Below, piece by piece: positions 20,217 to 39,980 of a stretch of 39,980 bases of DNA. This DNA comes from a virus. Its lineage: Duplodnaviria > Heunggongvirae > Uroviricota > Caudoviricetes. The notes under the pieces were generated by a model that made no database searches, was not told the DNA's origin, and was given only the letters and a program-made list of their open reading frames with translations. Where the stretch lies: IMG/VR virus record IMGVR_UViG_2617270954_000001. One strand, given 5' to 3'. Position numbers and translations under genes: made by a program. Position 1 is the stretch's first letter. Each line of letters opens with the position of its first letter.

Positions 20217-21629
20217 TTACCAACCGGAGGATGAGGGAACGTATATTTCTGTTTCTTCGCGGACCAATGCCGGGCAATGCATACACATCATCAGCGCATC
20301 AGCCAGGTTAGGAGATGGGATACCGAGCTTCTGCTTCATTTCGACCTTAGTCATAAGCTCCAGCTTCCCGTTGTTATTGAATTTGCGCTGAATCTGCGTA
20401 AGTTCTGCAAACAGCTTCTCCAGCATCTTCTCGCCTATCGCTTCTTTGTCGAAACTCAGCATGTCGTCGGGGTCTGCATACTCACCGTAGACAACCGCCC
20501 GATATGTCAGATACAGCCTGTCAGCCAGCGCGTAATAGAATTGCGCTCTCTTATTGCGGAACACATCACCAATAGTGCGAACGTTGTCGCCCTGTACGAC
20601 TTCATCAGCCCATGCTCCGGCCTGATACGGTGCATCTTCATCGAATGGCGATTCGCTGCCCTTGAACATCGTGGCGGTGATTTTCTTGCCGGAGAACGCT
20701 TCCGTTGTCTGTCTGCGTAGCCCAGCACCAACACCATCACCATCCCACAGGTAATGGTCAGCGCCGTCTTCAATCGCCAGCGAAGTAGCCCAGTCAGCAC
20801 CCTCGTTGATGTCCATCAGCAGACCTTCGGCAATGCGCTTAACCACCGAACCGTGACGCGATGCGTAACCTTTAGCATCTGGCCCTGTATCTGACGGGTC
20901 ATGTGCAGAAACAACCGCGCCTTTCGCTTTCCATCCGAGTTTCTTGTGCGCATCGGTTGCGGCTTCAAGCCATTCACGTTTGATGATTGCCATATCACTT
21001 GCGCTTACTGGCTCACCAAGCCAGATGTGACGATACAGTGTCGGATTTCTGCGTTTGCACTCTTCCATCTCCAGACGGAGAACTTCAGGAAAGTGCGGAT
21101 TGTCGGTGTAGTTCACCGTCAGCAGGCAAATATCATCTGGAGGATTTACGACGAATCGCTGATAGGTATCGTCGAGTATGTTTTTCGGGTTAAAGCTCAC
21201 CCATATTTCGGAAAACGGCTTGCGGATGGTTGGTATCAGGATATCCCATGATTCCTTCGTTACCGCTTCCGCTTCTTCCACCCAGCAGATATCAATGCCT
21301 TCGAGCGATTTAATCTTCGTCGGGTTGTTTTTTATGCCGTAGAACATGAATTCAGCATTCGTTCCGAGATGACGAATCATTGAACGCTGAATTTCAAACT
21401 CAGCCGAATACCCTTCCCGCTCTATGGTGTCTTCAAGCAACCGGATTACCGAATCGCTGATACTGTTTTGCAGTTCACGAGCACAGAGGATGCGCACCGG
21501 CTGCCGACGCGCCGCTTCAACAAGCAGCCTTGCGATTGCCCATGACTTACCGCTACCTCGACCGCCTTTGGCGACTTTGTAGCGATGCGCCTCAATGAAC
21601 GGTTCAAAGATAGGATTAATCGAGGTCAT
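20217..21629 (-). CDS. Terminase large subunit
   Basis: 470 aa; Walker A-like KGGRGSGKS near N-terminus; nuclease-like C-terminal half. Confidence 0.9.
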   Translation of the reverse strand: MTSINPIFEPFIEAHRYKVAKGGRGSGKSWAIARLLVEAARRQPVRILCARELQNSISDSVIRLLEDTIEREGYSAEFEIQRSMIRHLGTNAEFMFYGIKNNPTKIKSLEGIDICWVEEAEAVTKESWDILIPTIRKPFSEIWVSFNPKNILDDTYQRFVVNPPDDICLLTVNYTDNPHFPEVLRLEMEECKRRNPTLYRHIWLGEPVSASDMAIIKREWLEAATDAHKKLGWKAKGAVVSAHDPSDTGPDAKGYASRHGSVVKRIAEGLLMDINEGADWATSLAIEDGADHYLWDGDGVGAGLRRQTTEAFSGKKITATMFKGSESPFDEDAPYQAGAWADEVVQGDNVRTIGDVFRNKRAQFYYALADRLYLTYRAVVYGEYADPDDMLSFDKEAIGEKMLEKLFAELTQIQRKFNNNGKLELMTKVEMKQKLGIPSPNLADALMMCMHCPALVREETEIYVPSSSGW

Positions 21630-22066
21630 TTTCCGAATAGAGTGCTCATCGGTGATGTTTCAATCTGGATTGCGCCGCCGTCTTTGCCTGTTAGCTCGTG
21701 ATCAACCTTGTCGCGCCATTTATCCTTCTGTCGATTCTTAAGCCAGAAGATGGCAGCTGTTGTATCAGGCGGGTAATACTTCTCAAGCGGAGTTTCGACA
21801 ATTCTGTTTTCAATAACACGAATATCGATGTCTGGAGCCACGAAGCCCATAGCGCGTTGATAAAGACGATCACTAACTTCTGCATCAGCGACGGCCTTAC
21901 CCTTTTTTATGGACTCCGAAAACTTAGGATAATCAAGCTTCCACTTGTTAATAGTTGACTCACTGACTTCAAAGAAATCAGCAAGTTCTGCATCGGTGTA
22001 GCCCAGCAAGCACAGTTTGCGTGCCTGTTCGGCATACGCCTCTTGATACTTTGTTGGGCGCGCCAT
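21626..22066 (-). CDS. Terminase small subunit
   Basis: 146 aa; HTH-like N-terminus (LGYTDAELADFFEVSESTINKWK); start overlaps upstream gene stop. Confidence 0.8.
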   Translation of the reverse strand: MARPTKYQEAYAEQARKLCLLGYTDAELADFFEVSESTINKWKLDYPKFSESIKKGKAVADAEVSDRLYQRAMGFVAPDIDIRVIENRIVETPLEKYYPPDTTAAIFWLKNRQKDKWRDKVDHELTGKDGGAIQIETSPMSTLFGK

Positions 22067-22311: not shown

Positions 22312-22458
22312 TATTGGCTCCGTTTATCCGTTAAAAGGGATATCAGTTAAGTTATCCCGTGTAGGGTATAAGCCATTATCAAAGCCACTCTGTAGGGAAT
22401 GGCTTTTGTGATGGCAATAAAAAAGGCCGCCTGAGCGACCTTTCATTTTTCATCCGTT

Positions 22459-22677
22459 TTAATCATCTGGGTAATTAAGCGGCATCCAGTGTGTAACCTT
22501 GCTTGCTCCTGAATCGATGAATTCCTTGGTTCTCTGCCAGTAAGAGCCCATACATGATAGTTTGAACACGTCACCAGTATCAGTAAGAGCTATAACCTCT
22601 TTAGACCACATCCCTTCTTTGCTTTCTGGTAGCCGGTGTTCAACATTGATCCATTGGTTTCCGTTATCATCCATCAC
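22459..22677 (-). CDS. DUF551-like small protein
   Basis: 72 aa; C-terminal THWMPLNYPDD resembles the W-x-P-L-P tail of DUF551 proteins. Confidence 0.5.
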   Translation of the reverse strand: MMDDNGNQWINVEHRLPESKEGMWSKEVIALTDTGDVFKLSCMGSYWQRTKEFIDSGASKVTHWMPLNYPDD

Positions 22678-23113: not shown

Positions 23114-23581
23114 TCATCGAAGGCATTGCGTCCTGATGTATTCCTGAAGCGTTCTCAGTGCTGTCTGGTCTCTGATGATTCCGTCCCGGATACCGAGAAC
23201 GTTTCGTCCAGCAACTGGAGAGAGTTCGACGGTGGCATCATTGCCCATGCCGGAGGCGCTGGAGGTTTCGGCTGAGGATGGCACAGGGCATTTTCCTTTG
23301 ACGAGCACCCTGCCACCATTATCAAGCTTGCGCCGAAGAGCATCATTTTCAGCTTTCGCATCAGCTAACTCCTTCGTGTATTTAGCATCGAGTACATCAG
23401 CAGCACGCTGGCGTTGCTGCATGTCAGTAATGGTGGCGGTCGCCTGCTTCAGCTCACTGACTTTTTTATCTCGCTGCTCTTTGTAGGCGATGGCGTTATC
23501 ACGGTAATGATTAACAGCCCATAACAGGCAGACGATGATGCAGATAACCAGAGCGGAGATAATCGCGGTGACTCTGCTCAT
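23114..23581 (-). CDS. Rz: Inner-membrane spanin Rz
   Basis: 155 aa; N-terminal TM helix plus coiled-coil periplasmic domain; immediately downstream of the endolysin. Confidence 0.85.
23155..23361 (-). CDS. Rz1: Outer-membrane lipoprotein spanin Rz1, embedded in Rz in a different frame
   Basis: Lipobox VAGC followed by a Pro-rich segment ([16 protein letters not shown]), lambda Rz1-like. Confidence 0.8.
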
Positions 23582-36272: not shown

Positions 36273-36655
36273 TGGCACATTCGATTACTGTAAGACTAAA
36301 CAAGCCCGCAAGAGAGTTTCAGGCCGGGGAAAATATCGGATTCAACATCCGTGCTGGCGTTCAGTATTACGATCGCCAGACAAAAAAGAAAGAATGGACA
36401 AACTACAGCACCGTTGTATTTGCCAAGCCGGGAGCGCAAGCGGATTACTACCGTAGTGTTCTTGTTGAAGGTGGCATTGTGGAAATTACCGGAGAAAACA
36501 TCAGGGTTGATGTTTATCAGGGGCAAAATGGTCAATCCATCACTCTTGAATTACTGAATGCAAAGATTGGATTTGCAACTTCAGGAAACAGCCCGCAGCA
36601 GCAAAGTAGTAACCAGCAGAACACTCCTGTATACGACGATTCCATCCCATTCTGA
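36272..36655 (+). CDS. Short SSB-like protein (track ORF starts at 36182)
   Basis: About 127 aa from MAHSITVRLNKPARE...; OB-fold-like body, Gln-rich linker, C-terminal acidic tip YDDSIPF like the canonical SSB DDDIPF tail. Confidence 0.6.
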   Translation: MAHSITVRLNKPAREFQAGENIGFNIRAGVQYYDRQTKKKEWTNYSTVVFAKPGAQADYYRSVLVEGGIVEITGENIRVDVYQGQNGQSITLELLNAKIGFATSGNSPQQQSSNQQNTPVYDDSIPF

Positions 36656-36678
36656 TTTAGAAAAATAAGGATTTAATT

Positions 36679-36975
36679 ATGCCAGCGCCTCTGTATGGTG
36701 CGGATGACCCGCGCCGCTGTTCCGGCAATTCCGTATCGGAGGTGCTGGATAAATTCAGGAAAAACTACGACCTGATAATGTCGCTACCGCAGGAAACGAA
36801 AGAGGAAAAGGAATTTCGCCATTGTATATGGCTTGCAGAGAAAGAAGAACGCGAGCGAATTTACCAGACATCAATCCGACCATTCCGCAAAGCCACATAC
36901 ACCCACTTCCCTGAATATATCGACCCGCGCCTGCGTAATTACCGCTCACGCTATGGCGCTATCAGTAATGACTGA
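36679..36975 (+). CDS. Hypothetical protein, possibly Abc2-like anti-RecBCD
   Basis: 98 aa directly after the recombination genes, where P22 carries abc2/abc1; assignment by position and size only. Confidence 0.4.
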   Translation: MPAPLYGADDPRRCSGNSVSEVLDKFRKNYDLIMSLPQETKEEKEFRHCIWLAEKEERERIYQTSIRPFRKATYTHFPEYIDPRLRNYRSRYGAISND

Positions 36976-36985
36976 GGAATTAACA

Positions 36986-37276
36986 ATGAAAACAATGAAG
37001 CTAAACATCGACCTCGGAAAATACGTTATTACCGGAACAAAACACGATCTGATTCTTAGCGAAAGAGGAATTATCAAAGAAGACGAGAATGCAGGGAAAG
37101 AAACACTAAGTCGTATCGGTTATTACAGCAAGTTTGAGCATCTGGTTAAAGAGTTATGCAACCGTGAAATCCTGTTATCTCAGGCGCAGACGCTACAGGA
37201 TATTCAGCAGCATATCGAGACTTTAGGTGTGTCACTTAGCATGGCTATTGACCAGTTCGTGGAGAGTAAATCATGA
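36986..37276 (+). CDS. Hypothetical protein (track ORF starts at 36833)
   Basis: About 96 aa from [14 protein letters not shown]... with GAGG RBS. Confidence 0.4.
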
Positions 37277-37440
37277 GAGGACTTGCATACAATCCCGGCA
37301 TTCTTCCGGCAGAAATGATTATTCGCCAGCGCGTAAAGCCAATGCCATCGAGAGAGGAATTGCTTAAGAGAAATTCTTTTCCATCAGTGAATCAAAACAA
37401 ATATCTGAATGCGATGTGGCGTAAAGGAGGCAACCAGTGA
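37273..37440 (+). CDS. Small hypothetical protein (55 aa, absent from ORF track)
   Basis: Hand-translated [55 protein letters not shown]; translationally coupled on both sides. Confidence 0.3.
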
Positions 37441-38108
37441 GCAAGATTGACTATCAGGCACTGCGTGAGTTAGCAAAACAGGCAACACAGGGCGAATGGG
37501 TCGCATTCATTTCGCCGGGCACTGATACATATGCGGTGCATACGCCGGGGGATGAACGTTGCGGAGACATTATCAAATGGCCTGGCTTTGACGGCCAGAA
37601 AAATGCAGAGAACAACGCAGAATTTATCGCAGCTTTAAACCCTAAAGTAGTGCAGGCACTGCTGGATGAACGGGAAAGAAACCAGCAATATATCAAACGC
37701 CGCGACCAGGAGAACGAGGACATTGCGCTAACGGTAGGGAAGCTGCGTGTTGAGCTTGAGGAGACAAAATCAAAACTCAACGAGCAGCGTAAGTATTACG
37801 AAGGTGTTATCTCGGATGGAAGTAAGCGCATAGCAGAACTGGAAGCACGGGAAATAAAACCAGCCAAAGGTGAAGTTCTTGTCGTTGTTTCTGGTTTTAC
37901 TGGTTGCGGAAAAAGCGCCATTGCCGGGGAAATAGAAATCGCGATGAAGGCTATTGGTGTACCGGTTCAGTGGACTAATGGCGATGCGGAAAAGCGCATG
38001 ACAGGAGCTGACTGGCTGACAGCGATTGAGATGTACAAACCAACAGTGCGCATCGTGGAAGTTAATGTGCCACGCGCCGCAGGCATTCGCATCAAAGAGG
38101 GTGAGTAG
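37437..38108 (+). CDS. Ead/Ea22-like early protein
   Basis: 223 aa; N-terminus [17 protein letters not shown] typical of Ea22-like proteins; central coiled coil. Confidence 0.5.
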
Positions 38109-38280
38109 TGCGTGTGGCATGTATCGGCTTGTTACCGTACCCGACTCGTTTTTGGGCTTCTGCGCTAATTGCAAAGCCACATGTCCTGATAGCTGACAAC
38201 ATCATCCCGGCACCAAAGCGCCGCCATACCGGTATTGCAGCGGCACGACGAGCAGCAAAGAGACGCAGGAGAGCAAAACG

Positions 38281-38469
38281 ATGAAAAACCGTAAAGCAAA
38301 GATTCTGTTAGCTCGCAGAAACGGTGTTGGGGTCTGGCGATGGGTGAGGATTAGTAACAGACGAGTGAGGTTGATGGGGTGTTGCGGGGTGATGGGTCAC
38401 AGTTGTTGCAAAAAGCCCAGCGCGGCGCAAAACCGCTGGAAAAACTACTTGCGGACTAAAGGAGAGTGA
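38281..38469 (+). CDS. Small basic hypothetical ORF
   Basis: 62-aa Arg/Cys-rich ORF; could be spurious. Confidence 0.25.
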   Translation: MKNRKAKILLARRNGVGVWRWVRISNRRVRLMGCCGVMGHSCCKKPSAAQNRWKNYLRTKGE

Positions 38470-38470
38470 T

Positions 38471-38680
38471 ATGGCTATCGCTGCAAGTTACACCATGCAT
38501 CTCTATTGTGATTGTCGCCAGTGTACGGAAGGTGTATATCCAGTGCCAGACTTCGGTGAGTATATCGGTACGTCATGGTCTGGTTGTGCAAAAGAGGCCC
38601 GTAAAGACGGGTGGCGAATAAGCAAAGACAAAACACGTACTTTTGCGCCCGGGCATAAAGTTTTGAGGATTAACACATGA
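38471..38680 (+). CDS. Small Cys-rich hypothetical protein
   Basis: 69 aa with HLYCDCRQC motif; GGAG RBS; ATGA overlap with next gene. Confidence 0.4.
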   Translation: MAIAASYTMHLYCDCRQCTEGVYPVPDFGEYIGTSWSGCAKEARKDGWRISKDKTRTFAPGHKVLRINT

Positions 38681-39306
38681 CCACTATTACCAAAGAACGT
38701 ATTGAATTGTTCATTAAAAATCCGCTTGAAAACGGGCTTACTCGTGGCGAACAAATGGAACTGGCACGAATTGCACTGGCATCACTGGAACGCGAACAGA
38801 TTCGCCACGAGCATGCCAAATGGTCTGACTCCACATTTGGCTGCGTTGGCCCCATTGGTCCACTGAAACACCTCTCAAAAGAGGCACTGGAAGCCGCAGC
38901 CGAACCAGACGATCTTAGCGAGTGGGCTGATATGCAGTTCCTGTTGTGGGATGCACAGCGCCGTGCTGGTATCAGTGATGCTGAAATTACCGCTGCTATG
39001 GAAAATAAATTGAAGATCAACATGGAACGCCAGTGGCCTGAACCAAAAGATGGTGAGCCTCGCTTGCACATTAAAGAACCCGGCAACTCTCCGGTAACTC
39101 CGGATGGCTGGATAAGCTGTAGTGAGCGAATGCCGGATACCAAAACAGCCGTTCTTGTTGCCGTGGAGTTTGACAGGAAAGGTGACTGGCGAATGAAATG
39201 GGCGACTTACATCCCGGGTCATCCTGACGCTAATGATGGGTGGATAATTCCTGGTGCGTCGTGGAAACCGTCACACTGGATGCCGCTACCAGAGCCTCCA
39301 CTTTGA
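38677..39306 (+). CDS. DUF550 (dATP/dGTP pyrophosphohydrolase-like) fused to DUF551
   Basis: N-terminal all-alpha MazG-like pattern (EQIRHEHAKW..FG...PL.HL.KEA.E); C-terminal WKPSHWMPLPEPPL tail. Confidence 0.55.
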   Translation: MTTITKERIELFIKNPLENGLTRGEQMELARIALASLEREQIRHEHAKWSDSTFGCVGPIGPLKHLSKEALEAAAEPDDLSEWADMQFLLWDAQRRAGISDAEITAAMENKLKINMERQWPEPKDGEPRLHIKEPGNSPVTPDGWISCSERMPDTKTAVLVAVEFDRKGDWRMKWATYIPGHPDANDGWIIPGASWKPSHWMPLPEPPL

Positions 39307-39402
39307 AAGCGAAGCTTATACATATCTTTTACATCAGCAATCTATTGTTAATCTCCAATCAATGTTACGTTGTCATCTCACTCATGCTTTGGAGGTAGTG
39401 AT

Positions 39403-39582
39403 ATGTCTTGTCCAAAATGCGGTTCTGGAAATATTGCAAAAGAAAAAACAATGCGTGGATGGTCTGGTGATTATGTGTGCTGCGATTGCGGATACAACGA
39501 CTCTAAAGACGCATTTGGAGAGCGTGGTAAAAACGAGTTTGTTAAAATTAATAAAGAACGCGAAGGCAACGAAAAAAGCTAA
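39403..39582 (+). CDS. Small zinc-ribbon protein (track ORF starts at 39370)
   Basis: MSCPKCGSGN...CCDCGYND with two CxxC pairs; GGAGG RBS; followed by terminator. Confidence 0.5.
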   Translation: MSCPKCGSGNIAKEKTMRGWSGDYVCCDCGYNDSKDAFGERGKNEFVKINKEREGNEKS

Positions 39583-39713
39583 TTTATTTATTCATATATG
39601 AAAACAATGTAACCAATATTCGAATTGAAGAACTGAAAGAACACCAAGCCGCCTGATGGCGGTTTTTTATTGCCTGATTTGCAGGTTCGATTCCCTATTC
39701 GGAGATAGCACTC

Positions 39714-39914
39714 ATGCAACACGAACTACAGCCTGATTCACTGGTTGATTTGAAATTCATCATGGCTGATACTGGCTTCGGTAAAACCTTCATCTATGAC
39801 CGGATTAAGTCCGGAGACCTGCCTAAAGCCAAAGTTATCCACGGGCGAGCAAGATGGTTATATCGTGACCATTGTGAATTCAAAAATAAGCTCTTAAGCC
39901 GCGCCAATGGGTAA
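39714..39914 (+). CDS. xis: Second copy of the AlpA-family xis ORF (wrap-around duplicate of 135-335)
   Basis: Identical 66-aa translation to the ORF at 135-335. Confidence 0.7.
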   Translation: MQHELQPDSLVDLKFIMADTGFGKTFIYDRIKSGDLPKAKVIHGRARWLYRDHCEFKNKLLSRANG

Positions 39915-39980
39915 AATAGCGGGTAAAATATTTCTCACATCTAAAAAACACCATTCCAATCAATCCCCTGCCGCCTCAAG

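Follow-up and report, generated by a model that had tools for sequence, protein, structure and literature searches.

DUF550-DUF551 proteins are among the commonest uncharacterised prophage gene products in Escherichia coli and Salmonella, and they raise the question of what such a two-domain protein does for a temperate phage. One of these genes lies at positions 38677-39306 of a 39,980-nucleotide stretch of caudoviral DNA (IMG/VR record IMGVR_UViG_2617270954_000001), which is referred to below, in its entirety, as the window. An original prediction, made from the sequence of this stretch, described the product as a 209-residue fusion of a MazG-like DUF550 region and a DUF551 tail, and drew attention to a second, stand-alone DUF551 gene elsewhere in the window. 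The analysis reported here favours, with rather more confidence than doubt, an accessory mosaic gene whose product would act early as an oligomeric purine (deoxy)nucleoside triphosphate ((d)NTP) pyrophosphohydrolase and would carry a separable, putative DUF551 binding module. Knowing whether its role is dGTP/dATP depletion, pool cleaning or alarmone removal would clarify early host conditioning by temperate phages; the ea / exo-xis region in which these genes lie has been associated with the choice between lysis and lysogeny and with the induction of Shiga-toxin prophages. The family, its two-domain architecture and the exact protein sequences are already present in public databases under these names, and the locus by itself adds nothing beyond those records. 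A modest added value lies in the question of what DUF550 does where phage DNA is canonical, and in the clean cassette structure of the DUF551 alleles, of which no description was found in the literature consulted.

Gene and domain architecture

The gene and the modules within it are placed as follows.

38677-39306, plus strand: EaA-type DUF550-DUF551 open reading frame (ORF) of 209 amino acids, stop codon included (ORF listing; the exact protein is in GenBank and UniRef, on 187 contigs)
38677-38799, plus strand: N-terminal leader, residues 1-41, predicted to be helical (PHROG; recurs in other ea-region genes)
38800-39087, plus strand: DUF550 (PF04447) core, residues 42-137, a putative MazG/MazZ-like NTP pyrophosphohydrolase domain (Pfam; profile match to 7ODY; invariant residues)
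39082-39137, plus strand: inter-module boundary of about 55 bp encoding …GNSPVTPDGWISCSERMP (gene nucleotides 406-461; separate matches at 93-100% DNA identity)
39106-39300, plus strand: DUF551 (PF04448) domain, residues 144-208 (Pfam)
39136-39273, plus strand: cassette-like allelic DUF551 interior, residues 154-199 (entropy and allele clustering)
39274-39306, plus strand: 3' boundary of about 33 bp encoding HWMPLPEPPL and the stop codon (gene nucleotides 598-630; separate 100%-identity matches in DUF551 genes)

The predicted coordinates, strand, length of 209 residues and C-terminal WMPLPEPPL are exactly those of the ORF listing, in which the product ends in …HWMPLPEPPL. Both domains were recovered when the protein was searched against Pfam with hmmscan: PF04447, formerly DUF550 and now named "dATP/dGTP pyrophosphohydrolase", matched residues 42-137 over profile positions 1-96 of 97 (E 3.5e-42; 143 bits, far above the cut-off of 23), and PF04448, or DUF551, matched residues 144-208 (E 5.5e-21; 75.6 bits against a cut-off of 22). 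The DUF550 and DUF551 assignments of the original prediction were thus borne out, while the Pfam MazG models gave no direct match. A GAGGA ribosome-binding site at 38665-38669 lies 7 nucleotides 5' of the ATG. The 209-residue protein has no match to PF13935 (Ead_Ea22), which is matched by the neighbouring gene at 37437-38108 (E 1.7e-44), and searches with PADLOC and NCBIfam gave no match for either of the two DUF551-containing proteins of the window.

The DUF550 core, its predicted active-site residues and its candidate substrates

A single-sequence search of the Protein Data Bank (PDB) with the window protein returned MazZ of cyanophage S-2L (7ODY) as a weak match (E 0.41), and a profile of distant DUF550 homologues from Microcystis, Mycobacterium, Pseudomonas, Burkholderia and Klebsiella phages (30-57% identity) reached the same structure at E 1.6e-4. 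This was the only profile to do so, a redundant profile of near homologues having given no PDB match. When the core and five distant homologues were scanned against Pfam at E values up to 10, PF04447 was the sole nucleotide-hydrolase family recovered; the same scan gave no direct match to MazG, PRA-PH or DUF5664, and its only other match was a weak one to Phage_cap_E (E 0.01). Aligned with MazZ, for which the residue roles have been described (PMC8342488), the window protein shows the following correspondences.

Mn2+ ligands: MazZ E35, E38, E50 and D53; window protein E69, E72, E82 and D85
Non-conserved ligand: MazZ E34; window protein K68
Second-chain pocket and transition-state residues: MazZ K76, N80, R83 and W85; window protein K111, N115, R118 and W120
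Guanine 2-amino contact: MazZ D60; window protein D92

The E-x2-E … E-x2-D metal motif is therefore present as E69-x2-E72 … E82-x2-D85. Across 149 representatives of 50%-identity clusters, E69, E72, E82, D85, D92, K111, R118 and W120 are invariant and N115 is nearly so, and all nine residues are invariant in a 30%-identity alignment spanning five other phage groups. The acidic metal ligands, whose loss would have spoken against the predicted pyrophosphohydrolase, are accordingly present and unchanged down to homologues at 30% identity. More broadly, the window protein holds the whole invariant set of PF04447, namely S50, F54, G55, H65, K68, E69, E72, P77, E82, D85, D92, R96, K111, N115, R118 and W120; these 16 residues are invariant in the 30%-identity alignment, and most of them also in the 149 cluster representatives.

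S-2L MazZ converts (d)GTP to (d)GMP (PMC8342488), and dATP/dGTP pyrophosphohydrolase activity is ascribed to the DUF5664-DUF550 protein of phage SH-Ab 15497 (cited in PMC12884076). Because the metal- and substrate-binding residues of MazZ are conserved in the DUF550 core, an active purine (d)NTP pyrophosphohydrolase is the most likely reading, and we regard hydrolytic activity of the core as quite probable. A specific substrate can be named more tentatively: dGTP would be the likeliest, since the guanine 2-amino contact of MazZ is kept as D92, and dATP is possible. Pfam scans of most, although not all, of the large ORFs of the window found no PurZ/adenylosuccinate-synthetase-like, DatZ/HD-phosphohydrolase or DpoZ/PolA-like protein. 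The absence of PurZ, DatZ and a phage polymerase among the scanned ORFs places the DUF550 gene outside the 2-aminoadenine (Z-genome) pathway, and the phage, with its DnaB-like helicase and O-like initiator, presumably depends on the polymerase of its host. In the distant Pseudomonas phage H66, a DUF550 gene is followed directly by a gene annotated as N-(deoxy)ribosyltransferase-like (421-1403 of that locus), a nucleotide-metabolism neighbourhood that speaks for an enzymatic function of DUF550 in phages without a Z genome.

Several points weigh against the pyrophosphohydrolase reading. MazZ is a remote relative in sequence (E 1.6e-4), and one of its ligands, E34, is replaced by lysine. The full-length AlphaFold2 (AF2) model, built on an overly redundant alignment of 83 sequences, has a mean predicted local distance difference test (pLDDT) score of 45, and the four-helix MazG fold is deduced from sequence only; the model, which places helices at residues 39-49, 68-74, 80-96 and 101-118, was discarded for purposes of fold. 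To our knowledge, no experiment has addressed DUF550 proteins of phages whose genomes are canonical. In the only DUF550 protein with characterised biochemistry, the domain is accompanied by DUF5664, which hydrolyses dATP, dGTP and dUTP by itself (PMC12884076), and the activity of DUF550 proper is for this reason not cleanly established. In addition, the DUF550 proteins of Z-phages form a clade of their own (PMC12884076), so that substrate specificity may differ in the window protein.

Modular structure and DUF551 alleles

Comparison with other prophages presents the 209-residue gene as a recombinational mosaic of leader, DUF550 and DUF551 modules that circulate independently. PHROG matches are limited to residues 1-49 (phrog_3323, phrog_10451 and phrog_660). 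Among complete E. coli genomes, sharp DNA breakpoints recur, delimiting gene nucleotides 1-114 (leader), 93-458 (core) and 406-630 (DUF551 allele). The leader segment, nucleotides 1-114, is found by itself at 95-100% identity in other E. coli prophage genes; the same leader precedes a DnaJ-type zinc-finger C-terminus in IAI1, whereas EC556 has it fused with a different partner. The two boundaries that flank the DUF551 interior, at nucleotides 406-461 and 598-630, likewise occur by themselves, with 93-100% DNA identity, across numerous unrelated prophage genes of E. coli. The first recurs in DUF551 and Ea22-like genes, and the linker peptide that it encodes is also present in proteins of IAI1, Xuzhou21 and EC556. 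Both boundaries are candidate homologous-recombination linkers for module exchange.

The allelic nature of the interior was apparent in a set of 83 proteins that are about 99% identical over leader, DUF550 and linker. Residues 154-199 fall into 14 alleles, with identities of 0.86-1.00 within alleles versus 0.23 between them, and mean column entropy is 2.16 bits in the DUF551 interior against 0.05 bits in DUF550. Ongoing hypermutation of DUF551 was considered and ruled out on the same figures, since 86-100% identity within alleles and 23% between them indicate cassette exchange. The module also occurs without DUF550. An Ead/Ea22-like protein of E. coli O157 Xuzhou21 carries a DUF551 allele that is 100% identical to residues 136-208 of the window protein, and in strain EC556 a near-identical DUF551 module follows a 43-residue helical N-terminus at a locus from which DUF550 is absent.

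DUF551 therefore behaves as an autonomous, exchangeable module that is found alone, on Ea22-like proteins and on DUF550, in line with its description as a "portable domain" in the nuclear magnetic resonance study of Ea22 (PMC10834534). Twelve of the 14 alleles are acidic (isoelectric points of 4.1-4.9), and the alleles are rich in aromatic residues. No solved structural relative of DUF551 was found, and its predicted fold is common to other DUF551 proteins. The module would probably serve to bind a partner macromolecule and not to catalyse, and the allelic cassette is a tractable handle on that partner. Given that the modules circulate independently, DUF550 and DUF551 need not cooperate mechanistically.

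Proposed mechanism and alternative explanations

The 209-residue gene is an intact accessory gene of the early-left (PL) operon, placed between the Ead/Ea22-like gene and eag, xis and int, and belongs to the family labelled EaA in phage records. On the preferred reading, its product would be an enzyme at work soon after infection or induction. The DUF550 core would form an all-alpha oligomer whose active sites are shared between chains as in S-2L MazZ, with Mg2+ or Mn2+ held by E69, E72, E82 and D85. It would convert purine (d)NTPs to the corresponding monophosphates and pyrophosphate, dGTP being the likeliest substrate and dATP a possible one, and would work on the canonical or non-canonical purine nucleotide pool of the host, presumably to the benefit of the phage. 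DUF551, a small, mostly beta and usually acidic domain, would probably bind a partner macromolecule. Reshaping of nucleotide pools and degradation of signalling nucleotides, the two roles named in the original prediction, are plausible.

The catalytic residues on which this proposal turns could also serve other ends. A house-cleaning enzyme would remove damaged or non-canonical purine nucleotides (8-oxo-dGTP, 2-OH-dATP and dITP/ITP) during SOS or oxidative prophage induction, or alternatively nucleotides made by host defences, and would thereby protect phage DNA synthesis. Sanitising of non-canonical NTPs is the classical role of the MazG family, and all of the catalytic residues are conserved. 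Lambdoid prophages count oxidative stress among their natural inducers, and a mutant that lacks the DUF551 protein YfdS is sensitive to hydrogen peroxide (PMC10834534, PMC4776307). This backing is purely circumstantial. The YfdS link concerns DUF551 and not DUF550, and relatives hydrolyse canonical dGTP and dATP efficiently; we consider a house-cleaning role unlikely. The same relatives tell against an alarmone hydrolase that would cleave (p)ppGpp and not dNTPs, damping the stringent response and the toxin activation of abortive-infection defences such as TIR effectors. The model for such a role is Atd1 of Pectobacterium phage PcCB7V, also a phage MazG-like catalytic domain in an accessory region, which depletes (p)ppGpp and guards against the toxicity of TIR-STING and retron-TIR (bioRxiv 10.1101/2022.06.09.495361). 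The conserved D92 would suit a guanine nucleotide, and the gene lies in an early accessory region adjoining anti-RecBCD genes. Nevertheless, (d)GTP and dATP are the substrates of the closest characterised relatives, no PADLOC match was obtained, and the family goes unmentioned in two large screens of phage accessory genes. Atd1 itself, which acts on ppGpp and has no activity on ribonucleoside triphosphates (bioRxiv 10.1101/2022.06.09.495361), probably belongs to another MazG subfamily and was likened to the window protein by description. Alarmone hydrolysis appears an unlikely alternative.

Two further explanations dispense with catalysis or with the protein as such. If DUF550 mainly provided a platform on which DUF551 oligomerises, in the way that the Ea22 coiled coil does, DUF551 would be the functional part and enzymatic activity would be irrelevant. 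Such a scaffold would accord with the presence of an identical DUF551 allele on the Ea22-type N-terminus of O157 prophages, Ea22 being a tetramer (PMC10834534), with the short helical N-terminus that carries DUF551 in EC556, and with the fact that the pairing is not obligatory, DUF551 being present in only 20 of 149 DUF550 cluster representatives (the best ~150 of 3426). It is improbable nonetheless, because the residues for metal and substrate show no variation at all among homologues at 30% identity from enterobacterial, mycobacterial and cyanobacterial phages, which argues for selection on catalysis, and DUF550 also occurs alone as a protein of about 105 residues. The possibility that the 209-residue product is an artefact, the gene being a decayed chimera of a pseudogene N-fragment and a truncated 150-residue protein, derives from the Prokaryotic Genome Annotation Pipeline (PGAP) of NCBI, which splits the ORF in E. 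coli 55989 into a pseudogene fragment and a 150-residue coding sequence and so counts against the proposal above; the leader is, in addition, a separately circulating module. The truncated coding sequence starts at an ATT codon, at residue 60, whereas the PF04447 match begins upstream of it at residue 42 and covers profile positions 1-96 of 97. The frame is continuous and has a good ribosome-binding site, near-identical proteins of 204-215 residues number in the hundreds, the exact 209-residue protein is on 187 contigs, and PGAP splits other continuous mosaic ORFs in the same way. From the continuous frame, the upstream start of the Pfam domain and the recurrence of the exact protein, the split was judged an artefact, and decay of the gene appears very improbable. 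The parts into which PGAP splits the ORF fall at 38677-38802 and 38854-39306 in the window; the pattern is seen at loci L001 (6278-6907) and L010 (1201-1776), and IAI1 is one of the genomes that show it. The combination of a pseudogene fragment and a truncated coding sequence looks like a systematic annotation artefact arising from module shuffling.

Beyond the proposed pyrophosphohydrolase with its binding module, DUF551 might be a polymorphic recognition cassette through which different effector or oligomerisation modules of phages are docked onto a target that varies and belongs to the host or to a rival phage, a speculative idea to which we give little weight. With similarly little weight, the modules so docked could be a MazG-like pyrophosphohydrolase, an Ea22 coiled coil or nothing at all. 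Were this true, the target could be a defence protein or a nuclease, DUF551 would represent an arms-race interface, and the protein that combines it with DUF550 would either hydrolyse (d)NTPs locally or serve as a multivalent inhibitor.

Relatives and distribution

The closest named relatives are the EaA proteins, including eaA of BTP1, EaA of Salmonella phage SEN22 and the "Eaa-like" proteins of Klebsiella Webervirus, which have the DUF550 core in common with the window protein at 76-100% identity in P22-like phages and about 55% in Klebsiella phages. EaA proteins of P22-like phages occupy the same early accessory position and many show the DUF550+DUF551 architecture, whereas they differ in their leaders, inter-domain inserts and DUF551 alleles. 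We know of no EaA protein with an experimentally defined function.

S-2L MazZ (7ODY), which is (d)GTP-specific, resembles the window protein in the metal tetrad, the second-chain K/N/R/W residues and the guanine-contact Asp. It differs in having neither DUF551 nor a leader, in the glutamate E34 that corresponds to K68 here, and in its position within a datZ-mazZ-purZ cluster for 2-aminoadenine DNA, no such cluster being present in the scanned ORFs of the window phage. The DUF5664-DUF550 protein of Acinetobacter phage SH-Ab 15497, from which the Pfam name derives, belongs to the same PF04447 family, but it contains DUF5664 instead of DUF551 and comes from a PurZ phage. Resemblance through DUF551 is seen in variant V2 of Ea22 from Shiga-toxin phages and in the Xuzhou21 Ead/Ea22-like protein, both of which carry the domain at the C-terminus; in the Xuzhou21 copy, the GNSPVTPDGW linker is included in the stretch identical to residues 136-208. 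Unlike the window protein, these two have an N-terminal Ead/Ea22 coiled coil and not a pyrophosphohydrolase. The phenotypes reported for DUF551 proteins are indirect; Ea22 proteins, for one, favour lysogeny (PMC10834534). YfdS of the cryptic prophage CPS-53 of E. coli K-12, likened by description, is a prophage-borne DUF551 protein with a different N-terminal part (PMC4776307). A yfdS mutant is the source of the hydrogen-peroxide phenotype mentioned above, and YfdS contributes to the inhibition of replication initiation seen on overexpression of yfdQRST (PMC4776307).

At least 8000 homologues of the 209-residue protein were found in a word-index search, with both Pfam domains present in 120 of 120 among the matches listed. 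An exhaustive search with the DUF550 core gave 3426 cluster representatives at E <1e-3 and 511 at E <1e-30. The best 150 of the 3426 share at least 77% core identity and are 111-477 residues long, with the core at any position; a Lar-like domain was found in two of the 149 representatives drawn from them. Part of the gene is present in 2045 of 5426 complete E. coli genomes (38%), including O104:H4 and O157 strains. Far from being an unusual fusion, the DUF550-DUF551 pairing is the standard EaA-type arrangement in lambdoid and P22-like prophages of enterobacteria, and a very common one. A DUF550-HNH fusion, suggested by "HNH endonuclease" proteins of 195-202 residues in the same 90% cluster, was rejected as a clustering artefact at 20% identity.

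Prophage context and neighbouring genes

Pfam scans and the record annotation identify the window as a P22-like (Lederbergvirus / HK620-like) prophage, and a prophage present in E. coli 55989 and in the O104:H4 outbreak lineage matches it with 100% identity. Its genes include those for an integrase, a TorI-type excisionase and an O-antigen acyltransferase; a tailspike with a P22 head-binding domain, an antirepressor, a P22 injectosome translocase and an Sf6-type tail needle; and a DnaB-like helicase, an O-like initiator, ERF, the anti-RecBCD protein Abc2 and the Ead/Ea22-like protein. The PL operon, on the plus strand, runs in the order ERF, abc2, Ea22-like gene, small ORFs, 209-residue gene, eag, xis and int. 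The small ORF immediately upstream of the DUF550 gene is the following.

38471-38680, plus strand: Cys-rich ORF of 69 amino acids, phrog_926, without a Pfam match, overlapping the start of the DUF550 gene by 4 nucleotides (ATGA)

This overlap between the stop codon of the 69-residue ORF and the start of the DUF550 gene suggests that the two are likely to be translationally coupled. No sigma-70-like promoter was found within 36500-39980, which is consistent with read-through from PL, and expression of the DUF550 gene would therefore be expected only after infection or induction. A prophage-expressed defence gene that depletes deoxynucleoside triphosphates against superinfection was considered and appears unlikely, given that the gene belongs to the early-left operon, which is under repressor control, and lacks any promoter-like site of its own.

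The Ead/Ea22-like protein encoded at 37437-38108 (plus strand) has a C-terminal module of about 90 residues (phrog_11761) with a Walker-A-like motif, GFTGCGKS, and weak, sub-threshold matches to APS kinase and AAA_16; possibly, the Ea22 scaffold here carries a small P-loop domain. Between that gene and the 69-residue ORF, positions 38108-38470 (plus strand) are occupied by ORFs of 58 and 62 amino acids that are unannotated in E. coli 55989 RefSeq. Downstream of the DUF550 gene, an Eag-like protein of 70 residues (39370-39582, plus strand) is a Cys4 zinc ribbon; it resembles Lar, a restriction-alleviation protein (PF14354), at a level below threshold (E 1.2e-4; 22.7 bits, the cut-off being 28.6). 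At the other end of the window, a 640-residue AT3 + SGNH acyltransferase gene (1959-3881, plus strand) adjoins the integrase gene (549-1742), and its product is probably an O-antigen acetylase carried as serotype-converting prophage cargo.

The stand-alone DUF551 gene

The second DUF551 gene of the window and the element that follows it are placed as follows.

22459-22677, minus strand: stand-alone DUF551 gene (Pfam PF04448)
22414-22444, minus strand: terminator-like hairpin (22421-22444) and U-run, directly 3' of the stop codon of the stand-alone DUF551 gene

PF04448 matched residues 8-70 of this ORF (E 1.5e-9; 39 bits against a cut-off of 22), so that the gene itself is as originally predicted, while its proposed length of 72 residues is probably one too many. 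A GAGG ribosome-binding site is separated by 5 nucleotides from an ATG at 22674, but by only 2 from the GTG at 22677; this spacing and the 71-residue homologues in databases make the ATG the probable start and 71 residues the probable length. The exact 71-residue protein is in public databases, and 25 homologues were recovered, mostly of 66-85 residues and named DUF551. The AF2 model has a pLDDT of 81. The stand-alone and fused DUF551 sequences are 28% identical (pairwise E 2e-4), and no third copy was found in a six-frame translation of the window searched with hidden Markov models built from both DUF551 sets.

The gene is situated between the lysis genes (Rz at 23114-23581) and a small terminase-like gene (21626-22066), a variable slot in which other P22-like phages have unrelated accessory genes. 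The hairpin at 22421-22444, which was overlooked by a consensus terminator scan, comprises 10 bp with a folding energy of -14.6 kcal/mol and a z-score of -3.4 relative to shuffled sequences. This arrangement suggests that the stand-alone DUF551 gene is a moron-like insertion with its own terminator within the late region.

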